A program made the position numbers and the translations under genes. The notes under the pieces are model-generated. The model made no database searches. It saw only the letters and a list, made by a program, of their open reading frames with translations, and had not been told where the DNA came from. A stretch of DNA of 64,000 nt. Source: Candidatus Thorarchaeota archaeon. GTDB lineage: Archaea; Asgardarchaeota; Thorarchaeia; Thorarchaeales; Thorarchaeaceae. Shown one piece after another: positions 4,172 to 63,986 of this stretch (position 1 is the first letter of the stretch; each line of letters starts with the position of its first letter). The stretch is taken from positions 1,388,676-1,452,675 of the forward strand of contig JAIZWL010000001.1 in NCBI GenBank assembly GCA_021498125.1, read 5' to 3'.

Positions 4172-4429
4172 AAGCATCGCGTGATTATTACAATATTTCT
4201 CGATCTGTCTGACTACTGTTGTATTGCTGCTTTTATGTCTTCGATCGAGTTGATTTTTCAGGAATTGCGTCACTACTTGACGCTGTTCGTAGAATGATTC
4301 GAATGTGTCTAAAACGATACGACAGAACGTTGATTGTTAATGATGAGTATCATGTTTCTCAAATATCCGTTCATTCTCTAACAGCGAGGACTTAAAGGAA
4401 AGGTCCATTATGTAGTTGCGGAGAGAACA

Positions 4430-14246: not shown

Positions 14247-15860
14247 GTGGCATGTGTGGCACTTGATCTCTATCTGATTGCTCCTATTCTCATAGGCGGT
14301 GCACTCATTGCTAAGCTCTCAGAGAGATACAGGTTTCCCTATCCCATCCCCTTAATCATTGCAGGAGTCCTTATCGGTCAAGTCGTTCCTCTCAACGACC
14401 TGTCTACAGAGATCATCGGTCTTGACCTCATTGCGCAGCTCACTCTTGCTACAGTTCTGTTCTACGCAGGACTGACGATGAACATCCGTGAACTTCGCTT
14501 CTCACTTACTTCGGTCATGCTTCTTGCAACTCTAGGCGTCCTCGTTACTTCCATTGTTGCAGGATTCACTATTGCGATGTTCACCTCTCTTGGTGTTGTT
14601 GCTTTTCTGATCGGTGCCGTTCTCTCTCCGACAGATCCTGCCGCGTTGTTCTCCGTTCTTGAGAGCGGTGGAGTTCGTGTCAAACGTAAAGTGTTCTCGA
14701 TTCTCGAAGGTGAGGCTGTCTTTAATGATGCAACGGCCGTTGTACTTGTTATTACCGTCTTTACTCCTATCATCATCCCCGCACTGTCTGTGCCATGGTT
14801 TGTTGTTGTTCAAGAGTTCTTCCTAAGTATGATCGTTGGAATTCTCATCGGTTTTGGTATAGCATATGTGATCGGCAGTATTATTGTTCGTACTGGCGAA
14901 GACACATCACTCTCAATACTCACTGCTGCTACTCCAATTCTTGCGTACGGTATTGGTGAACTATTTGCTCCACTGGGAATTCATCCGGGTGCTCTTGCGG
15001 CGGTCTTTGCTGGAATATTCATGGCCAATGCTCGACGAATGATGAAGATGGATCCTCTCCCGCAAAAATCCATGCGAGGTGCGATGAAGAATGTCTCATT
15101 TGCCTTTGAGATTGTCATCTTCATCCTACTGGGCGCCACTGTGGACATTCAGCATCTCTTTTTGAATCCCGATCTTGTCATGACCGGTCTCATAACAGCC
15201 GCACTTGTCATCTTGCTCGCTCGTCCAATTGCGGTGTTTCTTGTGACCGCCTACGACAAGGGGATGGGCTGGCGAGATCGTTTTCTTGTGAGTTGGGCTG
15301 GAGTCAAGGGTGTGGCGACTGCGGCTCTTGCGGCGATCAGTATTGCATCGATAACGCGCTATGCGGTTCCTGGTTTTGCAGAGATTGCACGGACCATCAA
15401 CGGTATCGTCTTTATCGTCTTAATGGTGAGCCTGACTGTTCAGGGGATCACTACCCCGTTCCTTGCCTCGGCACTCGGTCTCACAGAAAAACAGGATGTC
15501 ACTCTCGAAATAACCGCGCGACGTGATGCTACACGGCAGGCACTATTACACCTTGTTGATCTCTATACTGAAGGCAAGATCGACAATGCTCTCTATACGC
15601 GGCTGAAGGCTGAGTTGGAGGAAGAGATCTTTACGTTAGAGGACGACTTACGTAAGATCATCTCTGAGACCCGTGCTCGACTAAGAGAGCTTGAAGTCCG
15701 TGAGTCGCTCCTTACAGCAAAGTTGGATTATTATCGGAAGCAGTACGAGGCTGGCAAGATTGATGACTCCTCATATGAGACCTATCGCCGTGAGCTAGAG
15801 GCTGAGATCGAGGAGATACAGATGCGGATGCGTTCTCTCTCCCGCGGTATGACCACATAA
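14247..15860 (+). CDS. Na+/H+ (cation:proton) antiporter, CPA1/NhaP family, with C-terminal coiled-coil tail
   Basis: About 12 TM helices. The conserved EGEAVFNDATAVVL (ND motif) is present. The C-terminal 120 aa contain an internally duplicated motif (EGKIDNALYTRLKAELEEEI / AGKIDDSSYETYRRELEAEIEEI). Confidence 0.75.
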   Translation: MACVALDLYLIAPILIGGALIAKLSERYRFPYPIPLIIAGVLIGQVVPLNDLSTEIIGLDLIAQLTLATVLFYAGLTMNIRELRFSLTSVMLLATLGVLVTSIVAGFTIAMFTSLGVVAFLIGAVLSPTDPAALFSVLESGGVRVKRKVFSILEGEAVFNDATAVVLVITVFTPIIIPALSVPWFVVVQEFFLSMIVGILIGFGIAYVIGSIIVRTGEDTSLSILTAATPILAYGIGELFAPLGIHPGALAAVFAGIFMANARRMMKMDPLPQKSMRGAMKNVSFAFEIVIFILLGATVDIQHLFLNPDLVMTGLITAALVILLARPIAVFLVTAYDKGMGWRDRFLVSWAGVKGVATAALAAISIASITRYAVPGFAEIARTINGIVFIVLMVSLTVQGITTPFLASALGLTEKQDVTLEITARRDATRQALLHLVDLYTEGKIDNALYTRLKAELEEEIFTLEDDLRKIISETRARLRELEVRESLLTAKLDYYRKQYEAGKIDDSSYETYRRELEAEIEEIQMRMRSLSRGMTT

Positions 15861-31555: not shown

Positions 31556-32446
31556 ATGGCTGATGCTATAGAGTGGACAAATGCTGGCCCAGAGGAGATT
31601 GTCTGGCGCTATCCTGACAATCGGATCCGATGGGGGTCACAGCTTATCGTCATGGAGAACCAGGTTGCGATATTTTACAGAGATGGAAAGGCACTCGATA
31701 CCTTTCTTGCTGGCCGTCATAAACTGACTACCAGTAGCATGCCCGGCCTTGTTGGCTGGCTACAAAAGAAGATTAAAGGCGATGTCTTTGAGGCCACCTG
31801 TATCTTTGTATCGCGAGGCCAGTTCCAAGGCAAGTTTGGAGGTAGAGGTCAGACAAGTGATCTTGCGCCACTGATGTTTCATGGTAACTTTTGGTTCCGT
31901 GTTAAGGAACCCAAGATCTTCGTGACAGAGGTCGTGGGTAATCAGAGAGCATTCACGACAAAGAAGATCAATGATTTCCTTCGTTCCTTCATGAACGAGC
32001 GAATTATCGACGAGTTCGCGCACTATGACCTACAAGCAGTCTTCACACAACTTGATGAGACCTCATTGAAGGTCAAGACCAAGGTGCGGATGAATTTTGA
32101 GCGCATTGGTCTAGAGCTTGTTGATCTGAAGTTCGAAGGTATTGACACCACCGAGAAATATCGTGAGCGCCTCTTCTGGCTGCGAACTGGTGGAGTTTCA
32201 GGGCAGCAGGTCGCTGGAATGGAAACAATGAAAGATGCCGCAGAATCACTTGGTCACAGTCCCGGTGCCGGATTCGGTGCAGGAATGGGCTTCATGGGTG
32301 CTATGGGCGGCATGATGGGTGGTGGACAACAAGGCGGTGGCGGCGGTGGTGCTGCACCCGCAGGTGCCAAGTTCTGTCCGAACTGTGGTACGAAGTTGTC
32401 ACCAGGTGTCAAGTTCTGTCCGAACTGTGGTACGAAAATCGGGTAG
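31556..32446 (+). CDS. SPFH/Band-7-like (Band_7_1/YdjI-like) protein with Gly/Met-rich segment and C-terminal duplicated zinc-ribbon
   Basis: The N-terminus IEWTNAGPEEIVWRYPDNRIRWGSQLIVMENQVAIFYRDGK resembles the Band_7_1 family start. The tail (GAGFGAGMGFMGAMGGMMGGGQQGGGGGG) is followed by KFCPNCGTK...KFCPNCGTK. Confidence 0.55.
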   Translation: MADAIEWTNAGPEEIVWRYPDNRIRWGSQLIVMENQVAIFYRDGKALDTFLAGRHKLTTSSMPGLVGWLQKKIKGDVFEATCIFVSRGQFQGKFGGRGQTSDLAPLMFHGNFWFRVKEPKIFVTEVVGNQRAFTTKKINDFLRSFMNERIIDEFAHYDLQAVFTQLDETSLKVKTKVRMNFERIGLELVDLKFEGIDTTEKYRERLFWLRTGGVSGQQVAGMETMKDAAESLGHSPGAGFGAGMGFMGAMGGMMGGGQQGGGGGGAAPAGAKFCPNCGTKLSPGVKFCPNCGTKIG

Positions 32447-32549: not shown

Positions 32550-35153
32550 GTGGCACGAATGGAGTATGATTTGGAATTCCTAAAGGCGCACGGTCTGATG
32601 GTTCAAGAACATAAGGGATCTCTTGCTATCAGGGGCACCGAAGTAGAATTCCACTATGACCGTGCAAATCGACTGCTCTACTTTAACATGCCTCCGACGC
32701 TCACGCCTCAGGAAATAGTTGCAGTTGTGACCGACTCGATGCTTGTCGATTACATCTGGTTCTGGGGTGATCATCTTGAGGTGTTCCGCCTCATTGACAG
32801 GACCTGTTACATTTGCAAACACCGTGGCGAAGCTCTATTTGATGAGCACGAGCCGGGTGAATTCGACCATACTGGTCTAGAACGGCTCTTCAGTGATATG
32901 ATCGGACTTCCTGACTTCACTGATCGGCTTCCATCTATACTTGACAGTCTTAGACCGCTTGAACGAGAGCGATCCGGTGTCATGCATGGACTTCTCTTCA
33001 GATTTTTTACTATTATATTTCTTATACAGATGGGTATGGTGACGGTCAAAGGTGCAGAAACGATACGCGACTTTGGAGAACGTCTACTATTATCTTCTGT
33101 AGGTCCTGACTTGGCAATTCCTCGGATTATCACGGGTGATGGCATGGGCCTTGTGGACTCAACTGTAGCCGGGGTCTCTCTCTCGCAGATTCTTGAGACT
33201 CTCTTCGGAGATCATGCGGATATCCCCCACACACTGCCGCCCTTTGCTGGATCTTATCTCGCCAATTTTATCAAAAATTATGCAATTGGGATGGATGATA
33301 CCGATCAGTCCCGTTCTCTAACCCTGCAGTTTCTTGAATTCTTACATGAGTATCTCATCTCAACATCGGGGATCAATCGTCGCATTGGCTCATATTATAC
33401 GCCTATGGGCATAGCCTACTATATTGCAAGTCAGGCAATTGCGTACTGGCTTGCTGCGACGACGGGGATTGACATCTACGAGCCGGATGATTTGTTGGAA
33501 CTTGACGAGATCAGGCGAAAGGCTCTCCTCGCCAGAGTGGAGCGAATTCGTATTCTCGACCCTGCGGTTGGAGGTGGGGCTTTTCTTATGGCTGCTGCTC
33601 AAGTGTTGCTGAGATTGAGAAAGCTGCTTGGGGATCGGCGACCTGATGGTCACATTCGATCCGAGATAGTGAGGCACAACCTATACGGAGTCGATATACT
33701 CCCCTCTGCTGTTGAATGTGCCACATTACGGCTAAAGCTCTGGTCACTGGATACCGCCTCTTTTCTCACGAATGACCTCCCGACTCATTTGCATATCCGA
33801 GTAGGTAACAGTCTAGTTGGACGTACGCACTATTCACATGACGCATTGGATGTCCCATCCATCCCTAAGCGATTTGATTGGATCAAAGAATTCCCAGAAA
33901 TATATGACCGAGAGGATCCGGGATTTGATATTATCATTGGTAATCCGCCCTACGGAAATATCACGTCGTATGATGAACGTGCCTACATTATACTGACCTA
34001 TCCATGGTCTGTGAGTGGTGAACGTACAGGAACCTGGAATAGTGCCTCGCTCTTCCTTGTTCGTTCAAGGATGTTGTTGAATAGCAAAGGGCAGCTTGGT
34101 CTTCTTGTACCGAATAGTATTCTCCGGGTGCGACAGTTCGCCAAGACTCGTTCTTTCATTACGAGCCAGTTCTTCCCTCAGGAATTTGTTGATGAGGGGA
34201 GCCCCTTTGACGGAGTGACCCTTGAGACCGTGACGCTCTTTTTGAGCGTGAGCGATTCCCAGTCGTCGTATATTCGTGTTCTCTCTCGGCGTCCCGATCT
34301 ACGACCGGCTCATGCCATACCACGCAGAGCGTCAAAGGACGACACGATTGTGGTCCTGTATCACGATGACATTCTCGATCTTGTTCTGGAACGGGGAACC
34401 AAAGGAGTCTTTCACGCATCACGAGGGAGAGATATTCCCCGCGAGCACTATGCTTTCTCCCCATCCGTTCGCTTTTCAATTCCTTATGCAGCAGTTGGAC
34501 GCTGTGTGAGTCGATATACGTTCGTTGATTCGTTTATGAGATATTCCGATGATTGGTTTGAACAAGATCGTTTGATGCGCGCATCTTTTCACGAGTCGTT
34601 TCTTGTCGCAACCAAGAATTTACCCTATCCTCGGTGCACACTGAAGCCTATCGGAGTCCTTCATGGTGGGGGGCTAGTTCGTATCACGATTGATGATCCA
34701 CACTTAGACCCACGAGCGGCTGCTGTGATCTTGAATTCCCGTTTTGTCAGGTATCTCTGTCTGCGGTACTTTACGAACTACTCGCAGTTGACCACCTGTC
34801 TTAACACTGGCATCCTTGAGGAGATTCCCGTGCCTCCTCTCTCTGTCCCTGATGTGTACCCTGTTCTCTTTGAGATTCTGCATGATGTTCATACTAGTAA
34901 CAAGTATGATTCTGCTGCCATCGCTTCTGTTGAGATGTTGACAGATGCTCTTGTATACGAACTCTATCTTCTTGATTCGGATGAACTTCATACTACAGCA
35001 AGAGACTCTTTGCTAGATGCTGCGGGTCGTGATACTCAGACCCTGATTCCTAACTTGATCGGCGGCTCTCTCCGTCAGAGTATGTTGAGTGTGTTGGATG
35101 ATCCGATAGTCCGTAGAGTAGAAACCTCTCCCCGGATGTCAAGGTCTCGTTGA
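32550..35153 (+). CDS. Large gamma-class N6-adenine DNA methyltransferase (Eco57I/type IIG-like architecture) with uncharacterised about-290-aa N-terminal region
   Basis: Motif X GSYYTPMGIAYYI, motif I (SAM-binding) RILDPAVGGGAFLMAAAQ, and motif IV DIIIGNPPYGN, in gamma order. There is a C-terminal about-250-aa putative target-recognition region. The N-terminal region contains CYICKHRG...EFDH. Confidence 0.75.
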   Translation: MARMEYDLEFLKAHGLMVQEHKGSLAIRGTEVEFHYDRANRLLYFNMPPTLTPQEIVAVVTDSMLVDYIWFWGDHLEVFRLIDRTCYICKHRGEALFDEHEPGEFDHTGLERLFSDMIGLPDFTDRLPSILDSLRPLERERSGVMHGLLFRFFTIIFLIQMGMVTVKGAETIRDFGERLLLSSVGPDLAIPRIITGDGMGLVDSTVAGVSLSQILETLFGDHADIPHTLPPFAGSYLANFIKNYAIGMDDTDQSRSLTLQFLEFLHEYLISTSGINRRIGSYYTPMGIAYYIASQAIAYWLAATTGIDIYEPDDLLELDEIRRKALLARVERIRILDPAVGGGAFLMAAAQVLLRLRKLLGDRRPDGHIRSEIVRHNLYGVDILPSAVECATLRLKLWSLDTASFLTNDLPTHLHIRVGNSLVGRTHYSHDALDVPSIPKRFDWIKEFPEIYDREDPGFDIIIGNPPYGNITSYDERAYIILTYPWSVSGERTGTWNSASLFLVRSRMLLNSKGQLGLLVPNSILRVRQFAKTRSFITSQFFPQEFVDEGSPFDGVTLETVTLFLSVSDSQSSYIRVLSRRPDLRPAHAIPRRASKDDTIVVLYHDDILDLVLERGTKGVFHASRGRDIPREHYAFSPSVRFSIPYAAVGRCVSRYTFVDSFMRYSDDWFEQDRLMRASFHESFLVATKNLPYPRCTLKPIGVLHGGGLVRITIDDPHLDPRAAAVILNSRFVRYLCLRYFTNYSQLTTCLNTGILEEIPVPPLSVPDVYPVLFEILHDVHTSNKYDSAAIASVEMLTDALVYELYLLDSDELHTTARDSLLDAAGRDTQTLIPNLIGGSLRQSMLSVLDDPIVRRVETSPRMSRSR

Positions 35154-35804: not shown

Positions 35805-36386
35805 TCATGGCTCAAGAAACTCATCTAGTCGCCCTTCTTCCTCTAACATCTCCATCCAATCAATATGCAGTCGCTCTTCTTTGCCATTGATAAATCCAAG
35901 GATCTTTGAAGCCGTGTCCTTCGGACTGAGCGATGTGGTATCGATCTCTATGACCGCATCCTCTCCGAAGGCATCTATTGCATCCATCTGACATACGCCG
36001 ATGACCTCGGCCTCTACGTTCTCAGCGATCTTTGACTTGGTATAGTCTCGCTTCTCAAGACGGGTTCTCAGGGTCTCAGGGTGCGTTCGCAGTACAAAGA
36101 CCCATTCGACTTCTCCATTTGGAACGAGATCTATGTAATGGCCCTCGATGATCATGCGGCCTCTCTTTTTGTCTAAGATGTCAATGAGCGCCGACACAAG
36201 ACAATCTTCGTCGATGACTCCTGTGTTTCTCTTGAAGTCCATCTCACTGATGCATCCCTTCTCTCTTGCGAGGTCCCCCATGGAAATCACTTCAACTGAG
36301 AGGAGTGCTCCTACTATTTTTGCAACCTCAGTCTTTCCCGTGCCGGGTGAGCCGCCAATAATGATCGCTGTCAGATTTACAACCAC
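35805..36386 (-). CDS. Fap7/AK6-type adenylate kinase-like P-loop NTPase
   Basis: Walker A IIGGSPGTGKTEVAKIV. About 190 aa with an LID-less short AK fold. It resembles archaeal putative adenylate kinase / Fap7. Confidence 0.65.
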   Translation of the reverse strand: MVVNLTAIIIGGSPGTGKTEVAKIVGALLSVEVISMGDLAREKGCISEMDFKRNTGVIDEDCLVSALIDILDKKRGRMIIEGHYIDLVPNGEVEWVFVLRTHPETLRTRLEKRDYTKSKIAENVEAEVIGVCQMDAIDAFGEDAVIEIDTTSLSPKDTASKILGFINGKEERLHIDWMEMLEEEGRLDEFLEP

Positions 36387-37320: not shown

Positions 37321-38298
37321 TCACTCTGTCGTATTGGTAGAACGTTCTTCATCCTCGTTTTTTGACTCCTCTGGTCTTTTCTCAGGTGGAGCCGCTATTT
37401 GCTTCTTCTTGGTTGTTCCTCCAGCAAGTCCAGTAAGGCCAATGATCTCTCCACGTGTCATGTCCATTGGAATTGCAAAGACGATCGTGTTGCTTTGATC
37501 AAAGCTGATGTCTTCGAGGCTCGAGAGTGTTCTTAGATAGAGTGCCTTTGTGCTCATCTTCTTGACAGCCGCCTCCAAGTTCTCAGCAGCCCTCAGTTCT
37601 CCCTCGCTCTTGATAATGACTGCACGCCGCTCACGTTCAGCCTCCGCTTGTCTGGCAATCACTCTCTTCATGTCCTCAGGAATCTCGATATTTTGCAGAT
37701 TGACACTGATAATATCGATGCCCCACTCGGCGGTCTCCTTATCGACTATCTCCTCAATGGCATTTGCAATCTCGTCTCTTTTTGCAAGTAGATCATCAAG
37801 CTCGACATTACCGATAACATCCCGCATGGTCGTCTGAGCATAGGAGATCACACTTGTCTTGATGTCCTGAATATTCATCAATGCATCTGCTGTTTTGACG
37901 ACCTTCATAAAGACGACCGCATCTGCGACAAGACTGATGTTGTCTTTCGTCATGACCTCCTGACGGGACACATCAATAGTCTGGATTCGTCTATCAATTC
38001 TCAAAAATTTTTCAACGAATGGCCATTTGAAGAATATTCCCGCACCGACCAATCTCTTGTATCTGCCGAACCGTAAGATGATAGCCTCTTCCCATTGCTT
38101 GTTGATCGCAATGGTCAGTGGGATCATGAGTAGGAATACCAATGCTAGAATCCATACCACTGGCTCTGGCAAAAACGTGATCGGTAATTTCAATATTGGT
38201 ATTGCTATAGTGAGAATAAATAATATTAGAAACGTCACAAAAGGTGCTGGCGAACCTGAATATTCGTATGTGTTATCGTGTTGTTCCTCTGTCCCCAT
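37321..38298 (-). CDS. Stomatin/prohibitin-family SPFH (band 7) membrane protein
   Basis: An N-terminal TM anchor precedes an SPFH core (VSRQEVMTKDNISLVADAVVFMKVVKTADALMNIQD...) and a coiled-coil/Ala-Glu-rich segment (RQAEAERERRAVIIKSEGELRAAE). Confidence 0.8.
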   Translation of the reverse strand: MGTEEQHDNTYEYSGSPAPFVTFLILFILTIAIPILKLPITFLPEPVVWILALVFLLMIPLTIAINKQWEEAIILRFGRYKRLVGAGIFFKWPFVEKFLRIDRRIQTIDVSRQEVMTKDNISLVADAVVFMKVVKTADALMNIQDIKTSVISYAQTTMRDVIGNVELDDLLAKRDEIANAIEEIVDKETAEWGIDIISVNLQNIEIPEDMKRVIARQAEAERERRAVIIKSEGELRAAENLEAAVKKMSTKALYLRTLSSLEDISFDQSNTIVFAIPMDMTRGEIIGLTGLAGGTTKKKQIAAPPEKRPEESKNEDEERSTNTTE

Positions 38299-40116: not shown

Positions 40117-41751
40117 ATGAGTCAAACTCCAATTATTGTGCTGAGAGAAGACACCGAACGGACACGTGGTCGTGATGCACAGCGAAATAACATCATGGCT
40201 GCTGTTGTCATTGCAGAGGCTGTCAGATCAGCGCTTGGACCAAAGGGAATGGACAAGATGCTTGTCGATTCTTTTGGTGATGTTACCGTGAGCAATGATG
40301 GCGCAACCATCTTGAAAGAAATGGATGTCGCACATCCCGCAGCAAAGATGGTCATCGATGTATCGAAGACCGTCGATAGCGAGGTTGGCGATGGGACTAC
40401 TACTGCCGCAGTTCTCACTGGAGAGCTGCTAAAGCAGGCCGAGACCTTGCTTGACCAGAAGATCCACCCAACCACGATCATCAGCGGTTACCGAAAGGCA
40501 GTCGATAAGGCAATGGAATATCTTGAGGAGATATCTGAACCAGTAGACCCGAGTTCTTCTGCTGCATTCAAGAAGACCCTCAAGGATGTTGCCAAGACAG
40601 CAATGTCGAGCAAATTCGTTTCCACATCAAAAGACGCTCTTGCTGATGTTGTTGTGGCTGCTATTCTTGCAGTCAACAAGGAGCGAAAGGAAGGCGAAGA
40701 GATCAATCTCTCTAACATTCCACGCCAGAAACAGGTTGGCATGAATACTTCTGAGACCGAGCTTATTCATGGCATTGTGCTTGACAAAGAGGTTGTCCAT
40801 GCAGGAATGCCGAAGAAGGTCGAGGCGGCCAAAATAGCACTTCTAGAATGTCCACTTGAAATCATCAAGACCGAGTTTGATGCTAAGATCTCAATTACCG
40901 ATCCTCTTGCCATGCAGCGCTTCCTTGATGAAGAGCAGAGCATGATCAAAGAGATGGTGGACAAGATTGTCGAGTCTGGAGCAAATGTTGTCATCTGCCA
41001 GAAAGGCATTGATGATGTAGCCCAGCATTATCTGGCTAAGAATGGTATTTTGGCAGTGCGCAGGATAAAGAAATCCGATATCGAGCGCATCCACAAGGCC
41101 ACAGGTGCGACCATCGTGAGCAAGATCCAGAATTTGACAGCCGAGAGTCTTGGAAAGGCAAAGTCTGTCCAGCAGAAGCGTGTGGCTGATGATAAGATGC
41201 TCTTTATTGAGGGAACCCCCAAGAGCTCTGTTGTCACGCTACTCGTTCGTGGTGGTACAGATCATGTTGTTGATGAGGTTGATCGTGCAATCAATGATGC
41301 GATCTATGTAGTGAAAGATGTAGTTGAGCATCCTCAGATCCTCTATGGTGGAGGTGCTGCCGAGGCACACATTGCAGTGAAGCTTCGTGAGTATGCATCC
41401 TCGCTTGAGGGCCGTGAGCAATATGCTGTAAATGCATTTGCCGATGCTCTTGAGGCACTCCCTGCGACGCTTGCCGAGAATGCCGGACTCGATCCCATTG
41501 ACATCATCGTTTCACTTAGGTCTGCCCACAGTGAAGGAAATGCCAGTTACGGTATTGATATTACCAAGGGTAAGGTGTCTGACATGAAGAGGGCCCGTGT
41601 TGTCGAGCCCACAGTCGTCAAACGGCAGGTCATAGCCTCTGCGGCTGAAGCATCACAGATGATTCTAAAAATCGATGATGTTATTAGCTCAAAGGCTCCG
41701 CCAATGCCCGGTGGCGGCCAGCCCGACCGTGACCTTGGTGACGAAGATTAA
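40117..41751 (+). CDS. Thermosome subunit (group II chaperonin, CCT/TCP-1 family)
   Basis: Signature segments [35 protein letters not shown], and GGGAAE near the C-terminal third. The tail is GG-rich and acidic ([15 protein letters not shown]). GGAGGAAG lies about 8 nt upstream of the ATG. 544 aa. Confidence 0.95.
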
Positions 41752-41784: not shown

Positions 41785-42450
41785 ATGTCGAACAGCCCCG
41801 AAGAAAATGAGACCACAACGGAAGAAGAGATGGCACTTGAAGAGAAGGCCGCCATGTTGACCAATATCCCTGGTGTTGGGCCCCGGACCGCAGAAAAACT
41901 GGTGGCCGCAGGCTATGACACAATTGAGAAATTCGCATCAGCTCCTGCTGAAGAGATTGCGAGTGCAGTTACAGGCCTCAGTGTGTCCAAGGCCGAGATA
42001 CTGGTCGCAGAGGCTGTTTCTCTCCTTGAGGCAGTGGCCTCCGGGGCTATAGATCTCACCCACAAGTCCAAGTCAAAACGGAAAGGCGCAGTAGAGCCGG
42101 AGCCTGAGAGGCATGAGTTGGAACCTATGGACGAGCTCGCGGCCGAAGAGGAAGTCACCTCTCTGACCACTGGCTTTGAACGCGAGAAGGAAGAGATGGG
42201 CATCACTATTGGTCCTAAATGGCTCACCCGATTTGAAAAGGCAAGGATCATTGGAGCCCGTGCCTTACAGATCGCTATGGGTGCACCCACTCTGATCGAT
42301 ATGGCCTCTGCACCTCCTGGCCTATTTGCACTTGCCGAGGCCGAGTTGCGTGCAGGTGTTCTTCCAATGACTGTGCGCCGCTCAAAACCGACTGGCGAAT
42401 ATACAGACATTCCTCTTGCTGTGTTGTTGAAAAATACGAGGCTGGACTAA
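41785..42450 (+). CDS. rpoK: DNA-directed RNA polymerase subunit Rpo6/RpoK (RPB6/omega homolog) with acidic N-terminal extension and HhH motif
   Basis: The C-terminal 85 aa carry the RpoK signature [22 protein letters not shown]. The N-terminal about 130 aa contain an acidic tract ([17 protein letters not shown]) and an HhH-like segment ([24 protein letters not shown]). Confidence 0.65.
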
Positions 42451-58692: not shown

Positions 58693-59844
58693 TCATTGTT
58701 CGCTGTCTGATGTTTTTCGTCTGTTAGATGATGCAAGCTCTGTTGCGGCAAGAGGCTCTTCTTCTGATGTCTCTTCCTGTTCGAGGGTCTCCCTTGCATT
58801 CTTGATGGGGGTCTCACCCGATTCTCCTGATTCTGCGCGCATCTGGCCATACTCATCAAGAAGTTCGGGAATTGATGATGGCTCGATAGGTATCTCGGGT
58901 GCGGTCTCAGCCTCTGACTTGACGATCTCCTCTACAAGCATTCGTTTATCGATCAGACCTAAGACACGTCGTCTGATATAATCCGGTGAGTTCACCATGT
59001 CGGGTACTCTATAACGTTCTAAGAGCAGACTGATCATTGCTATTGTTGCTCTGTCTTTTACGGCTGTGAAGATAAGGGTGAAGTTTAGCATGATTGAGAA
59101 CAGTGGTCCCACTACCACAAAGATCACGAATGGTGCGACCCAGAGTTCGGTATTGATCGTGAGTTCGATCCAGACAAGGATAATATCAATCCCTGCAACG
59201 AATTCAAGGAGGTCTTCCAGATCATCACCCACATTGCTCAGAGACCGGTCACGTGTATCGAGATGGAAGAGACCTGAGTCTTTGATGATCCAAGGCGCAT
59301 AGTAGAGCTGCATGACAGTGATGGGCAGAATGGCAACACTGGCCACCATCACGATTGCTCCGAATCTGAGAATGTCCATCTCGGTCGCGGTGCCCATGAG
59401 ATCAAAGCTCATTATCGTAAGTGCTATCCCTGCGACCAGAATTGAGCCATACAGCGATCTTCTGATGACCGTGCTCTTCGATTGGTCTGGGACATCCGGG
59501 CAGATGAAATATTCTCCTGTTCCATGTTTCAAGAATGAATGAATCTTGAGGAGTAATGTGATTGTTCTGGGTTTTCGTATGATGAGCCAGCAGATGAATG
59601 CTGCAATGACTGTTGCAATCGCAAGTCCCCACAGCATGTATGATGTGTACTTCACAATATCCGCAAATGCGAATCTGAATGGTGTGAGCACTGCAACGTA
59701 GTAGAGTAGGCCAAATGTTGATGCTCCCATTAACAGTACTGACAGGACGAGGCCTCCAAGAATCTGTTTAGGCCCCAGTTTCTTAGCCTCTGACAACTGT
59801 TTCATATAGAAGCTCAGTGATGCCTTTGAATCGCTCATCCTCAT
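58693..59844 (-). CDS. Polytopic membrane protein with acidic C-terminal tail (hypothetical)
   Basis: 383 aa with about 8 TM helices. The C-terminus is Glu/Ser-rich. Confidence 0.4.
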   Translation of the reverse strand: MRMSDSKASLSFYMKQLSEAKKLGPKQILGGLVLSVLLMGASTFGLLYYVAVLTPFRFAFADIVKYTSYMLWGLAIATVIAAFICWLIIRKPRTITLLLKIHSFLKHGTGEYFICPDVPDQSKSTVIRRSLYGSILVAGIALTIMSFDLMGTATEMDILRFGAIVMVASVAILPITVMQLYYAPWIIKDSGLFHLDTRDRSLSNVGDDLEDLLEFVAGIDIILVWIELTINTELWVAPFVIFVVVGPLFSIMLNFTLIFTAVKDRATIAMISLLLERYRVPDMVNSPDYIRRRVLGLIDKRMLVEEIVKSEAETAPEIPIEPSSIPELLDEYGQMRAESGESGETPIKNARETLEQEETSEEEPLAATELASSNRRKTSDSEQ

Positions 59845-60151: not shown

Positions 60152-61126
60152 ATGGTCACAGGCTACGAAGTCTCGGATGATGGTACGCTTCAAGAGATCG
60201 ATATCAGTAAGGACACTCTTGATTCCACTCGTGTCTTTTGCGTGGTGGATGATTCGACCCGCAGTATCTATCTCTGGAAGGGTAATCAAGCAGGAATTCG
60301 GAAAAAGTTCATTGGTGCAAGAGTTGCCACCAACCTGCGAACTGAGTACGGCTTTCATTTCAAGGTGCGTCCTGTGGATGAAGGCGAAGAACCTCCAACA
60401 TTTTTCACCGCGCTTGATGGGACTACAACAGCCACACGGGTCATAAAACCTGGGGTATCTGCTCCATCGAAAAGTGTACCTCCACCGACACCGCCCAAGA
60501 AGCCCAAAGCCGTGTCCGCATCTACTTCGACTGCCTCTCCTGCAGCGAGTACTACTGCTCCCCCGCCTACACCGCCCAAGAAGACCACTACTGCTCCCCC
60601 ACCGACACCACCTAAGAAGACCACTACTGTTCCCCCGACAAAACCTCCCAAAACAACAGCTCGATCGGCCTCGGCAGCATCTGCTTCAGTCGCGGCCAGT
60701 TCCGGAGTTGGAGCTGTCAGTGATGCTGAGATACAGGCGATGATTCATGAGTTGGAGGAGACGGCTCCTCCCGAGGGTTATCGGCGTGAGCTATTGATCG
60801 TCTATAATCGGCTCTACACTGTGACGGAACGCAGGACCTCCATCTTCGGGCAAGAAAAAATCGAACGTAAATTCGAGCTTGTGAAGGATCCTCCAGAGGG
60901 GACCTTTATGGCTGAGGGATTCATTCCCCGTGTCATAGTCAAGGACGGAATGATTCTGGGGATCGAACTTCTGAAAGGCACACCGGATGCGATTCTAAGT
61001 CCTATTAAGACGGAGATGAAAGAGCGGCTCAGTGATCTCATTAGTTTCTTCAAGAGTGAGGTTGAGGCCGAAGAGGCACCGGTCAAGCCAAAGACAAAAC
61101 GTAAGAGGAAGCTTGTGGCCAAATAA
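60152..61126 (+). CDS. Gelsolin-domain protein with polyproline (PPPTPPKK) repeats and C-terminal domain of unknown function
   Basis: The N-terminal about-100-aa aligns to the gelsolin-homology core (RVFCVVDDSTRSIYLWKGNQAGIRKKFIGARVATNLRTEYGFHFKVRPVDEGEEPPTFFTAL vs gelsolin G1 YVILKT...[50 protein letters not shown]). A Pro/Thr/Ala-rich linker carries three PPPTPPKK(T/P) motifs. A 140-aa C-terminal domain and the basic tail KPKTKRKRKLVAK follow. Confidence 0.6.
   Translation: MVTGYEVSDDGTLQEIDISKDTLDSTRVFCVVDDSTRSIYLWKGNQAGIRKKFIGARVATNLRTEYGFHFKVRPVDEGEEPPTFFTALDGTTTATRVIKPGVSAPSKSVPPPTPPKKPKAVSASTSTASPAASTTAPPPTPPKKTTTAPPPTPPKKTTTVPPTKPPKTTARSASAASASVAASSGVGAVSDAEIQAMIHELEETAPPEGYRRELLIVYNRLYTVTERRTSIFGQEKIERKFELVKDPPEGTFMAEGFIPRVIVKDGMILGIELLKGTPDAILSPIKTEMKERLSDLISFFKSEVEAEEAPVKPKTKRKRKLVAK
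60559..60630 (+). repeat. Tandem 36-nt repeat encoding PPPTPPKKTTTA x2 (a third, degenerate copy lies at about 60478-60501)
   Basis: cccccgcctacaccgcccaagaagaccactactgct is followed by cccccaccgacaccacctaagaagaccactactgtt. Confidence 0.8.
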
Positions 61127-61182: not shown

Positions 61183-61614
61183 ATGCCTCTCGCATTGAGA
61201 GGAATGACCTACGGAGGAGCGAACATGTCCATTCAACTGGATCCCGCAAAGGAAAAGGAACTTATTGAACTCTTAATGGGACTCACTGACGTTGCAGACC
61301 TTGATGCGATTGCAGTAGTCAGTAGACAAGGTGTGAAGATCTCTTATTTTGCCACTGAAGACTCTGATGCAGACCCGGACCTCATGGCTGCTGTTAGTGC
61401 AGCATTGTTGGTTCAGGGTGAGATGGCAGCCCAGCGTCTTGGGCTTAATGATCTGTATGAGGTTGTCATTCGCGGAGAGTCTGGGTTTGTTGTATTATCC
61501 CAGGCTGGTGATTTTCTAGTCATGGGCTCTGCTAAAGACATCACCTCCATGGGTCTTGCAGTCACTCAGATGCGACGGTATGCGCGTGAAATCGGCGCAC
61601 TTCTATCCGGATGA
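61183..61614 (+). CDS. Roadblock/LC7 (MglB-like, longin-fold) domain protein
   Basis: LMGLTDVADLDAIAVVSRQGVKISYFATEDSDADPDLMAAVSAALLVQGEMAAQRLGLNDLYEVVIRGESGFVVLSQAGDFLVMGSAKDI matches the Roadblock consensus (alpha-beta-beta-alpha-beta, ...dG..ia....ae..aa..a.l....lg.g.l....ie.e.g.l.l...g...L.v...). The start may be the Met at 61207 or 61228. Confidence 0.65.
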   Translation: MPLALRGMTYGGANMSIQLDPAKEKELIELLMGLTDVADLDAIAVVSRQGVKISYFATEDSDADPDLMAAVSAALLVQGEMAAQRLGLNDLYEVVIRGESGFVVLSQAGDFLVMGSAKDITSMGLAVTQMRRYAREIGALLSG

Positions 61615-62927: not shown

Positions 62928-63986
62928 TTATAGCTCGGCCTTCTTTTGTTCCATCAGATTTCCAATGTCTGACTTGAGATTCTGTATGGTCTCTTTTGTG
63001 AGGCGTACTTTGTCAGGGATAGATGCATGGGTCCCCGGTTGAAGGGCTGGGGCCGTGGTCATCCTCTCAAGTTCTGTCCGCAATTCACTGATCTTGGAGG
63101 TGATCGCCTCCACAGATTTTCTCACCTGAGTTCGTCTTGTCGCCTCTGCTGGATCGTCAGTTGTAGATGCTGTTGGTAGAAGACCATATACTTTATCGAT
63201 CTCCGCCTTAACGTCGGAGAGCTTTTGTCTGAGGCCCGCTACATCGTCCACTACGCTCTTCAAGTCCGCGACCAGTCTGTCCCATTCTGTAACGACATCT
63301 CCCACTTGTGATTCTATCTCACCGCTGCTCTTGTCGAGTCTACGTGTGAGTTCCTCTTGCAGACTGATGATCACTCCTCGTGCGTAGGTCTTTTGTGCCT
63401 CCTCTCTGGAGGTCTGTAGTCTCTTGGCCATCTCCTCGTCACCCATGAGATTGTCTACAACATCGACCATCTCATTGATGACATTGATCCGAGCTCTGGC
63501 CGCATCGAGTTCTTTGTTCTGAATCTCTTCGCGCGCCTTAGTCAGCGTAGCAGATAATCCATCTATGAGGCGTAGAATAGGTTCTTGTTCAAGATCGGAG
63601 GTCGCCACAGTATCTTTCAACAGGCTGATTCTTCCATCGGAGACATCAGCATCATGTTGGAGTTTCTCTGTGACTTTGTAATCTCGTAATACGAACGTTC
63701 CCGGTCCGGCCTGTAAGCTATACTCGGTGTTTAGCATATCGGCATATGTGCCCCTGACAAGCACTTGGTATTCTTTGGCACCCATCAGGGTCTCGTCCGC
63801 AGCCTTCGCTTTGATCTCAAGTGTGATCTGTTGGCCTGCTGCAACGGTACCCAGTGCTTTGATCTTGTCACCAGCTGATAGTTTGAGACCCTCGTCAAGA
63901 ACCCATTCGAGTTTCAACTGCAATGCATCACCGTCGCCATCATTCTTAATGACGACCTGCAGCGGGAACTCTTCACTAAAGGTCAT
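62928..63986 (-). CDS. Coiled-coil protein with N-terminal beta-rich domain; possibly 5'-extended beyond the window
   Basis: The N-terminal about-110-aa look beta-sandwich-like. Long heptad-rich helical segments follow (EEIQNKELDAARARINVINEMVDVVDNLMGDEEMAKRLQ...). There is no stop between the Met at 63986 and the window end. Confidence 0.45.
   Translation of the reverse strand: MTFSEEFPLQVVIKNDGDGDALQLKLEWVLDEGLKLSAGDKIKALGTVAAGQQITLEIKAKAADETLMGAKEYQVLVRGTYADMLNTEYSLQAGPGTFVLRDYKVTEKLQHDADVSDGRISLLKDTVATSDLEQEPILRLIDGLSATLTKAREEIQNKELDAARARINVINEMVDVVDNLMGDEEMAKRLQTSREEAQKTYARGVIISLQEELTRRLDKSSGEIESQVGDVVTEWDRLVADLKSVVDDVAGLRQKLSDVKAEIDKVYGLLPTASTTDDPAEATRRTQVRKSVEAITSKISELRTELERMTTAPALQPGTHASIPDKVRLTKETIQNLKSDIGNLMEQKKAEL

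Follow-up and report, generated by a model that had tools for sequence, protein, structure and literature searches.

An ortholog of the Asgard actin regulator 1DGelX in a Thorarchaeote: gelsolin domain, proline-rich linker, domain X and a Roadblock/LC7 neighbour

Is an archaeal gene that joins a gelsolin-like domain to polyproline tracts a new kind of actin regulator, or a known protein met again? The question is raised by a gene at positions 60152-61126 (+ strand) of a 64,000-nucleotide stretch of a Candidatus Thorarchaeota archaeon genome (contig JAIZWL010000001.1, assembly GCA_021498125.1; the whole analysed stretch is called the window in the following). Its open reading frame (ORF) is real and complete, with an ATG start, 324 amino acids (aa) and a TAA stop, and the NCBI entry K9W43_06845, a "hypothetical protein" of a Candidatus Thorarchaeota archaeon metagenome-assembled genome (MAG), was 100% identical to its product. 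With a probability of roughly 0.85 the gene, GelX, encodes the Thorarchaeota ortholog of 1DGelX, a calcium-independent severing, nucleating and sequestering regulator of the Asgard actin cytoskeleton. This architecture was named and biochemically characterised in 2020 (Akil et al., PMC7444086), and the core finding is a rediscovery. An earlier note on this DNA had implied that the gelsolin fold was a rarity and a novelty here; this did not hold, as the host is a Thorarchaeote, an Asgard archaeon in which the fold is expected, and exactly this architecture had been published as "1DGelX".

The gelsolin-homology domain comprises aa 1-88 (60152-60415, +). A phmmer comparison with the sequences of the PDB retrieved ProGel of Thorarchaeota first (7c2f_B, E=7.3e-14, covering residues 1-88), then Thor 2DGel3 (1.2e-9), Heimdall 2DGel (2.4e-7) and Loki 2DGel (2.6e-6), while eukaryotic gelsolin, villin and adseverin appeared from about E=1e-3 upwards, horse gelsolin with E=1.8e-3. 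By sequence, the eukaryotic gelsolin matches were mostly G3-type repeats, not G1. The whole protein was modelled with AlphaFold2 on a 51-sequence alignment; the model has a single gelsolin/cofilin-type domain at the N-terminus with a predicted local distance difference test score (pLDDT) of 72-81, a disordered middle part (37-61) and a folded C-terminal domain. A Foldseek search of the modelled N-terminal domain against the PDB returned 7c2f_B as the top match (E=5.7e-6, template-modelling score (TM) 0.75, 35% identity), and the top 50 matches were all gelsolin, villin, severin, fragmin or adseverin domains, alone or complexed with actin. The earlier note had aligned about the first 100 residues with the G1 core of gelsolin: gelsolin homology was borne out by both searches for aa 1-88, the assignment to G1 was not.

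The motif D...W.G, which distinguishes gelsolin from cofilin, is present as VVDDSTRSIYLWKG, with D33, W42 and G44 invariant in the family alignment, and an LWKG motif was found in the same domain. The long helix aa 49-66 carries the peptide GARVATNLR, invariant in the family and picked by a pattern scan as its most conserved peptide. After the core comes a conserved extension, ALDGTTTATRVIKPG (aa 87-101; 60410-60454, +), recognised by alignment column counts: in 51 Thor-type homologs A87, G90, A94, K99, P100 and G101 are invariant, and the consensus after the gelsolin core reads FFTALDGTTAATRV(L/M/I)KPG(E/D)xA. Because its pLDDT in the model is low, the extension is probably ordered only upon binding; it may run along the actin surface.

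Orthology to the characterised protein was established by sequence and by position. A homolog search covering 5.8 billion proteins yielded 315 homologs. The 120 of these that are listed measure 298-331 aa, bear source names mostly of Thorarchaeota, and all share the gelsolin domain, a proline-rich stretch, a highly conserved C-terminal domain (domain X) and a near-invariant C-terminus. Among them is P0113 (304 aa), which is accession KXH72031.1 from Thorarchaeota SMTZ1-83; it is 60% identical to the window protein over the full length in BLASTP, and the alignment showed near-identical gelsolin and X domains. KXH72031.1 is entered as "Thor_1DGelX" in Supplementary Table 3 of a recent study (bioRxiv 10.1101/2025.11.30.690169). 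The identity between its gelsolin domain and ProGel is 35%, and this equals the figure published for 1DGelX (PMC7444086), which supports that P0113 is 1DGelX. The SMTZ1 contig has the gene order of the window: solute-binding protein, permease, ABC ATPase, divergent membrane protein, GelX and a Roadblock/LC7 gene. The order from ABC transporter to Roadblock is also found in the BC isolate and was kept across 73 species-level Thorarchaeia genomes with a GelX copy, with some variation in the membrane-protein gene. Because the gene order is the same in the SMTZ1 contig and in these 73 genomes, the window gene is the positional ortholog of KXH72031.1. Both proteins agree in architecture, locus, neighbours, the terminal KLVAK and the proline-rich type of linker. 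They differ in length (324 aa in the window, 304 aa in SMTZ1-83) and in sequence and length of the linker: the window protein has three exact PPPTPPKK motifs, of which a 36-nt tandem duplication supplied two, KXH72031.1 has units of the PPPSPPKPK and PPPKPK type.

The biochemistry of the ortholog is known in some detail. 1DGelX of SMTZ1-83 binds rabbit actin with a dissociation constant (Kd) of 7.7 µM, shortens the lag phase at a substoichiometric 0.1 µM, indicating nucleation, and blocks polymerisation at a 1:1 ratio (PMC7444086). Filaments were rapidly severed in pyrene, viscometry and total internal reflection fluorescence assays, equally in ethylene glycol tetraacetic acid (EGTA) and in Ca2+, and some bundling of the severed fragments was observed (PMC7444086). 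By orthology to this protein, which binds, nucleates and severs actin, the reading of the window gene as an actin regulator in the earlier note was confirmed. A further homolog, B35_GelX of Lokiarchaeum ossiferum (UYP44381.1), has one gelsolin-homology domain, a long linker and an X domain and clusters with Thor GelX, although its host belongs to a different Asgard class; it was enriched in a co-immunoprecipitation with Lokiactin (bioRxiv 10.1101/2025.11.30.690169). In the supplement of that study, the row GNAMCCOK_00673 contains values consistent with an enrichment of about 2.3 log2 fold. Domain X has no known function according to the same study, which likewise labels the linker "of unknown function" (bioRxiv 10.1101/2025.11.30.690169).

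Several observations speak against a role as regulator of the Asgard actin cytoskeleton. 1DGelX was assayed with rabbit actin, and Thor actin and the separate domains could not be expressed; a filament-side binding function of domain X is a hypothesis of the authors, not a result; and a GFP fusion of 1DGelX in U2OS cells was located weakly on filaments and concentrated at nuclear-envelope and endoplasmic reticulum-like regions (PMC7444086). In our own analysis, the Pfam profile Gelsolin (PF00626) stayed below its threshold, with 12.4 bits vs a cutoff of 21 (E=0.14). Gelsolin homology is established despite this score, because the solved Asgard gelsolins match by sequence and by structure.

The solved relatives suggest how the protein may work. 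Thor ProGel (7C2F; 35% identity, TM 0.75) and the Asgard 2DGels (7C2G, 7C2H, 7WHF, 7WHG) possess a homologous gelsolin domain and lack the proline-rich linker, domain X and basic tail of GelX. ProGel is a lone domain which barely binds actin (Kd 337 µM), and the 2DGels consist of two domains and are calcium-regulated (PMC7444086). 1DGelX could not be crystallised, and its C-terminal extension was proposed to hold a filament side-binding element (PMC7444086). The actin-binding site, the role of domain X and the tail, and whatever the prolines or Roadblock contribute are inferred. The long helix aa 49-66, which is invariant, would insert into the G1/cofilin site, in the cleft of actin subdomains 1 and 3, like ProGel in 7C2F. 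Owing to the flexible linker, domain X together with the basic tail could make a second contact, either with the filament or with a partner, and this contact may keep the gelsolin domain at the filament side, where competition with actin-actin contacts would lead to severing. Such a second contact, which ProGel does not have, would explain the about 40-fold tighter binding and the gained severing activity in comparison to ProGel. The PPPxPPK motifs of the Thor-type proteins would probably serve for a weak, multivalent docking of profilin or profilin-actin, accessory to the core mechanism.

Domain X (aa 191-307; 60722-61072, +) was modelled separately with AlphaFold2 from a 37-sequence alignment of divergent members with 23-46% identity. 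The prediction was confident (mean pLDDT 92, predicted template-modelling score 0.67) and consists of a helix (191-203), a five-stranded antiparallel beta-meander (210-217, 220-231, 234-243, 257-264, 267-276) and a long helix of 30 residues (278-307). The coiled coil of a published I-TASSER model (PMC7444086) is contradicted by this five-stranded sheet between two helices and was rejected. Domain X had no match in Pfam and none to PDB sequences even by profile, and no relative among solved structures; nor was profile or structural similarity to the Roadblock, longin or profilin-like folds detectable. According to the model it is a real compact alpha/beta domain without detectable relative among solved structures. 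A phmmer search with aa 186-324 against 1.84 billion cluster representatives yielded 88 clusters, and in 45 of the 48 full-length representatives (>=240 aa) a gelsolin domain was located upstream, hence domain X is essentially confined to the GelX architecture. The most conserved element is the loop between strands 3 and 4, VKDPPEGTFMAEGF (aa 244-257; 60881-60922, +), also written as DPPEGTFMAEGFIPR or DPPEGTFMAEGF; it is invariant in the 51 Thor-type sequences and, by this conservation, a candidate binding site. G250 and R260 are the only columns invariant in all 37 divergent sequences. The C-terminal tail AEEAPVKPKTKRKRKLVAK (aa 308-324; 61073-61123, +) is basic over the last 13 residues. 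It ends in KL[VI]AK in 118 of the 120 listed homologs and in KLVKK in the other two, differs in other GelX clades, and may contact F-actin or a membrane. An uncharacterised C-terminal domain of 140 aa with a basic tail, as first described, was thus correct in kind, a folded domain outside Pfam families and PDB relatives, and too large in extent: the folded part has about 117 aa, the tail 17.

Between the gelsolin domain and domain X lies a disordered linker rich in proline, threonine, alanine, serine and lysine (aa 102-190; 60455-60721, +; pLDDT 37-61); the 85 residues aa 101-185 include 22 P, 16 T, 15 A, 14 S and 10 K. PPPTPPKK occurs exactly three times, as copy 1 at aa 110-117 (60479-60502, +) and as copies 2 and 3 at aa 137-144 and 149-156 (60560-60583 and 60596-60619, +). 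An in-frame 36-nt tandem repeat of 2.8 units (60551-60651, +; Tandem Repeats Finder score 139) encodes TTAPPPTPPKKT twice and then the degenerate unit TTVPPTKPP. Three motifs and a 36-nt repeat had been noticed before; the array encodes motifs 2 and 3 and the degenerate unit, and motif 1 sits outside, 48 nt upstream.

A linker which is a plain flexible or extended spacer, drifting in composition, shifting in length by repeat slippage and bearing PPPTPPKK without a specific partner, comes near to an even chance without reaching it. Outside one motif the linker sequence is unconserved and its length is held: the stretch from gelsolin core to domain X, including the conserved extension, measures 93-126 aa with 17-29% proline among the 120 listed homologs. 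Number and spacing of the later motifs differ even in the 94%-identical P0002. In the non-Thor GelX clades the architecture is the same, but the linkers contain 4-23% proline and PPP is missing; consequently polyproline is dispensable for the core function. The repeat is a place where assemblies break, a typical behaviour of low-complexity DNA. A drifting spacer does not account for the first motif, however, which is conserved in position immediately after the RV(L/M/I)KPG segment (P110 in 48, P111 in 49, P112 in 42, P114 in 50, P115 in 49 and K116 in 37 of 51 Thor-type sequences). Since these column counts follow directly on the conserved extension, the first PPPxPPK is more than a compositional bias and, in the alignment, a position-conserved short linear motif. 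Nor would a spacer predict that the three DNA copies, which differ at 3, 3 and 4 sites, do so exclusively at third codon positions; the restriction to synonymous differences fits purifying selection on the peptide.

The positional conservation and the synonymous-only differences favour the motifs as functional ligands which recruit profilin, profilin-actin or another proline-recognition domain, so that GelX would act as a primitive VASP- or formin-like factor coupling actin binding to monomer delivery; we consider this reading, of which the earlier note had proposed the polyproline-mediated recruitment, tentative and, on balance, rather unlikely. Among 63 full-length Thor-type proteins, 49 had one or more PPPxPP motifs, in which K, R, T, A or S mostly stands for x. 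Every PPPTPPKK also fits the class II SH3 consensus PxxPx[KR], which gave seven overlapping matches in the linker (aa 111, 112, 138, 139, 150, 151, 162). No SH3-type partner was seen among the window ORFs, the only place searched for one, and no proline-recognition domain was found among the about 65 window ORFs scanned. Classical profilin ligands carry at least five prolines in a row or repeats of an XPPPPP unit. The longest run in GelX is PPP, short of the profilin-type pattern of >=5 Pro or XPPPPP units. The VASP peptide PPPAPPLPAAQ, with the same PPPxPP core at its start, is a ligand of a Thorarchaeota profilin with a Kd of 0.25-0.5 mM (PMC8410842). At this affinity, a recruitment of profilin by the proline motifs of the Thor-type clade is plausible by analogy, but would be weak, and for the profilins of Loki, Odin and Heimdall LC2 no binding of the peptide was seen (PMC8410842). 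The linkers without PPP in other clades argue against an indispensable ligand, as does the ortholog, which nucleates and severs without profilin (PMC7444086). A specific ligand function and a plain spacer role can coexist in one linker.

The eukaryotic proteins Abp1/drebrin and Ena/VASP likewise combine an actin-binding module, a proline-rich region and a further C-terminal domain. The resemblance to GelX is one of architecture: beyond the distant relationship of the ADF-H and gelsolin folds there is no homology, domain X does not belong to the SH3 domains, EVH2 regions or coiled coils, and GelX has far shorter proline runs; the PPPxPP core is shared with the VASP peptide PPPAPPLPAAQ. The polyproline protein TFG13563 of Thor Tekir-14 (PMC8410842) was considered as a possible GelX and is probably none, as the GelX of Tekir-14 has PPPTPP, not PPPAPP. 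Assemblies tend to break within the repetitive proline-rich linker. In the chromosome-level record L074 a run of N lies in the linker (about 4290-4400) and unrelated genes come after it; four contigs (L059, L075, L076, L077) stop inside or just past the gelsolin domain. MAG annotations may therefore miss GelX or cut it short.

Directly downstream of GelX, a gene for a Roadblock/LC7 protein of 129 aa (61225-61614, +) was identified by Pfam Robl_LC7 (PF03259; E=2.2e-12, 47 bits vs a cutoff of 23). Its start was set at the ATG after GGAGGAG, in agreement with the 129-aa orthologs. The nearest solved chains are distant and labelled Robl_LC7 or Roadblock-LC7 domain proteins (7f8m, E=7e-9; 9jue, E=1.4e-8). 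In 68 of the 73 Thor-type loci (L006-L078) the gene directly downstream of GelX, on the same strand, was an ortholog with 73-93% identity. Four of the five exceptions are at a contig edge, and the fifth, L074, is broken by the N run inside the linker; as its gene is cut there and the context beyond is a different one, it was rejected as a genuine exception. A scan with non-Thor domain X sequences recovered 80 metagenome loci (L085-L164), one of them a contig from the LAZR01 metagenome record. Seventy were eligible with >=600 nt of downstream sequence, and 61 of these had a Roadblock ortholog downstream on the same strand, two more on the opposite strand. Where directly compared, the non-Thor Roadblock proteins were 40-42% identical to that of the window. 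The NCBI source labels of one non-Thor GelX cluster (L123) were mostly Hermodarchaeota or Promethearchaeota, and a Roadblock gene also adjoins the homologs P0127 and P0163. The other flanking genes differ between the clades, with ABC transporter, membrane protein and aminotransferase in the Thor-type loci and a YjeF-type gene in 47 of the 80 non-Thor loci, so that Roadblock is the only neighbour common to both. The pair is not mentioned in papers naming roadblock, gelsolin and Asgard, nor in an Asgard Roadblock structural paper, and the main text of PMC7444086 uses none of the words proline, polyproline, linker and roadblock; an absence from the literature is not proven by this.

This conserved adjacency might mark a two-gene module in which domain X docks on the Roadblock dimer, elsewhere a small-GTPase-regulating platform, and severing and nucleation come under GTPase or polarity control. 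We regard this as unlikely, notwithstanding a metagenome contig (L162, 2485-4161, +) on which a single ORF of 558 aa joins gelsolin domain, domain X, a winged helix and Robl_LC7 (E=7.8e-17); it could be a natural fusion of GelX and Roadblock, or an artefact of assembly or frameshift. The neighbour is absent in the lineages of P0124 and P0136, where GelX comes after thermosome, Rpb6 and AAA_18 genes. The median gap between GelX and Roadblock is 32 nt in Thor loci and 183 nt in the second clade, and the long gaps there make co-transcription uncertain. Roadblock was not named among the proteins enriched in the Lokiactin co-immunoprecipitation of L. ossiferum (bioRxiv 10.1101/2025.11.30.690169), and the profiles of domain X and Roadblock are unrelated. 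A bolder version, in which the pair is an ancient module of several Asgard classes, docking on the Roadblock dimer ties severing and nucleation to small-GTPase or polarity signalling, and PPPxPPK in Thorarchaeia additionally recruits profilin-actin, is speculative and has little probability. If true, the module would be a pre-eukaryotic counterpart of the logic which leads from a GTPase over a nucleation-promoting factor to profilin-actin. Finally, that GelX is no actin regulator in vivo and its gelsolin-like fold serves another ligand, as the heterologous rabbit actin and the weak filament localisation in human cells (PMC7444086) might hint, is highly improbable in view of the micromolar actin binding and robust severing of the ortholog (PMC7444086), the native co-immunoprecipitation of the Loki homolog with Lokiactin (bioRxiv 10.1101/2025.11.30.690169) and the invariance in the family of the helix with which gelsolin-type domains contact actin.

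The nearer surroundings of GelX are conserved to a varying degree. On the opposite strand, 58693-59844 (-) encodes, divergently from GelX, a predicted membrane protein of 383 aa that matches no Pfam family and has a C-terminus both acidic and rich in serine; 44 of the 73 Thor-type loci have a homolog (35-74% identity) at this position. A protein of 352 aa (62928-63986, -) has a beta-rich N-terminus with a weak DUF11-like match and a long coiled coil with weak FlgK- and EzrA-type matches, and in 21 of the 73 Thor-type loci it recurs, with 26-64% identity, downstream of the aminotransferase. In two non-Thor lineages (L079 and L082, one labelled Candidatus Asgardarchaeia) GelX stands immediately after a thermosome, an Rpb6-domain protein and an AAA_18 kinase-like gene. 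Genes of these types occur in the window at 35805-36386 (-), 40117-41751 (+) and 41785-42450 (+), 18-24 kb upstream of GelX, which suggests that their linkage with GelX is older and was later rearranged.

The about 65 window ORFs scanned encode, among others, UvrA/UvrC, tRNA synthetases, thermosome, S-adenosylmethionine synthetase, transporters, GNAT acetyltransferases, SPFH proteins and a restriction-modification methylase. No actin, profilin or other gelsolin was among them, the search being confined to the window. A Na+/H+ exchanger (14247-15860, +) has a C-terminal extension weakly matching a CdvA-like coiled-coil domain (E=1.6e-6, below the Pfam cutoff). Two SPFH/Band 7 genes are located at 31556-32446 (+), there fused to a C-terminal zinc ribbon, and at 37321-38298 (-), separated by a gene for an Eco57I/MmeI-type restriction-modification methylase (32550-35153).

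Direct records of actin regulation before the eukaryotes are few, and the Asgard gelsolins belong to them. As an ortholog of the characterised 1DGelX, the locus adds no new kind of protein to them. What goes beyond the main texts of the published work on GelX is the conserved first PPPxPPK, the confidently predicted fold of domain X and the conserved pair of GelX and Roadblock. These raise the questions whether PPPxPPK binds the polyproline-competent profilin of Thorarchaeota, which ligand domain X has, and whether Roadblock links severing to GTPase signalling. If true, the PPPxPPK-profilin contact, the ligand of domain X or the Roadblock link would widen the actin toolkit of the Asgard archaea past profilin and gelsolin alone.

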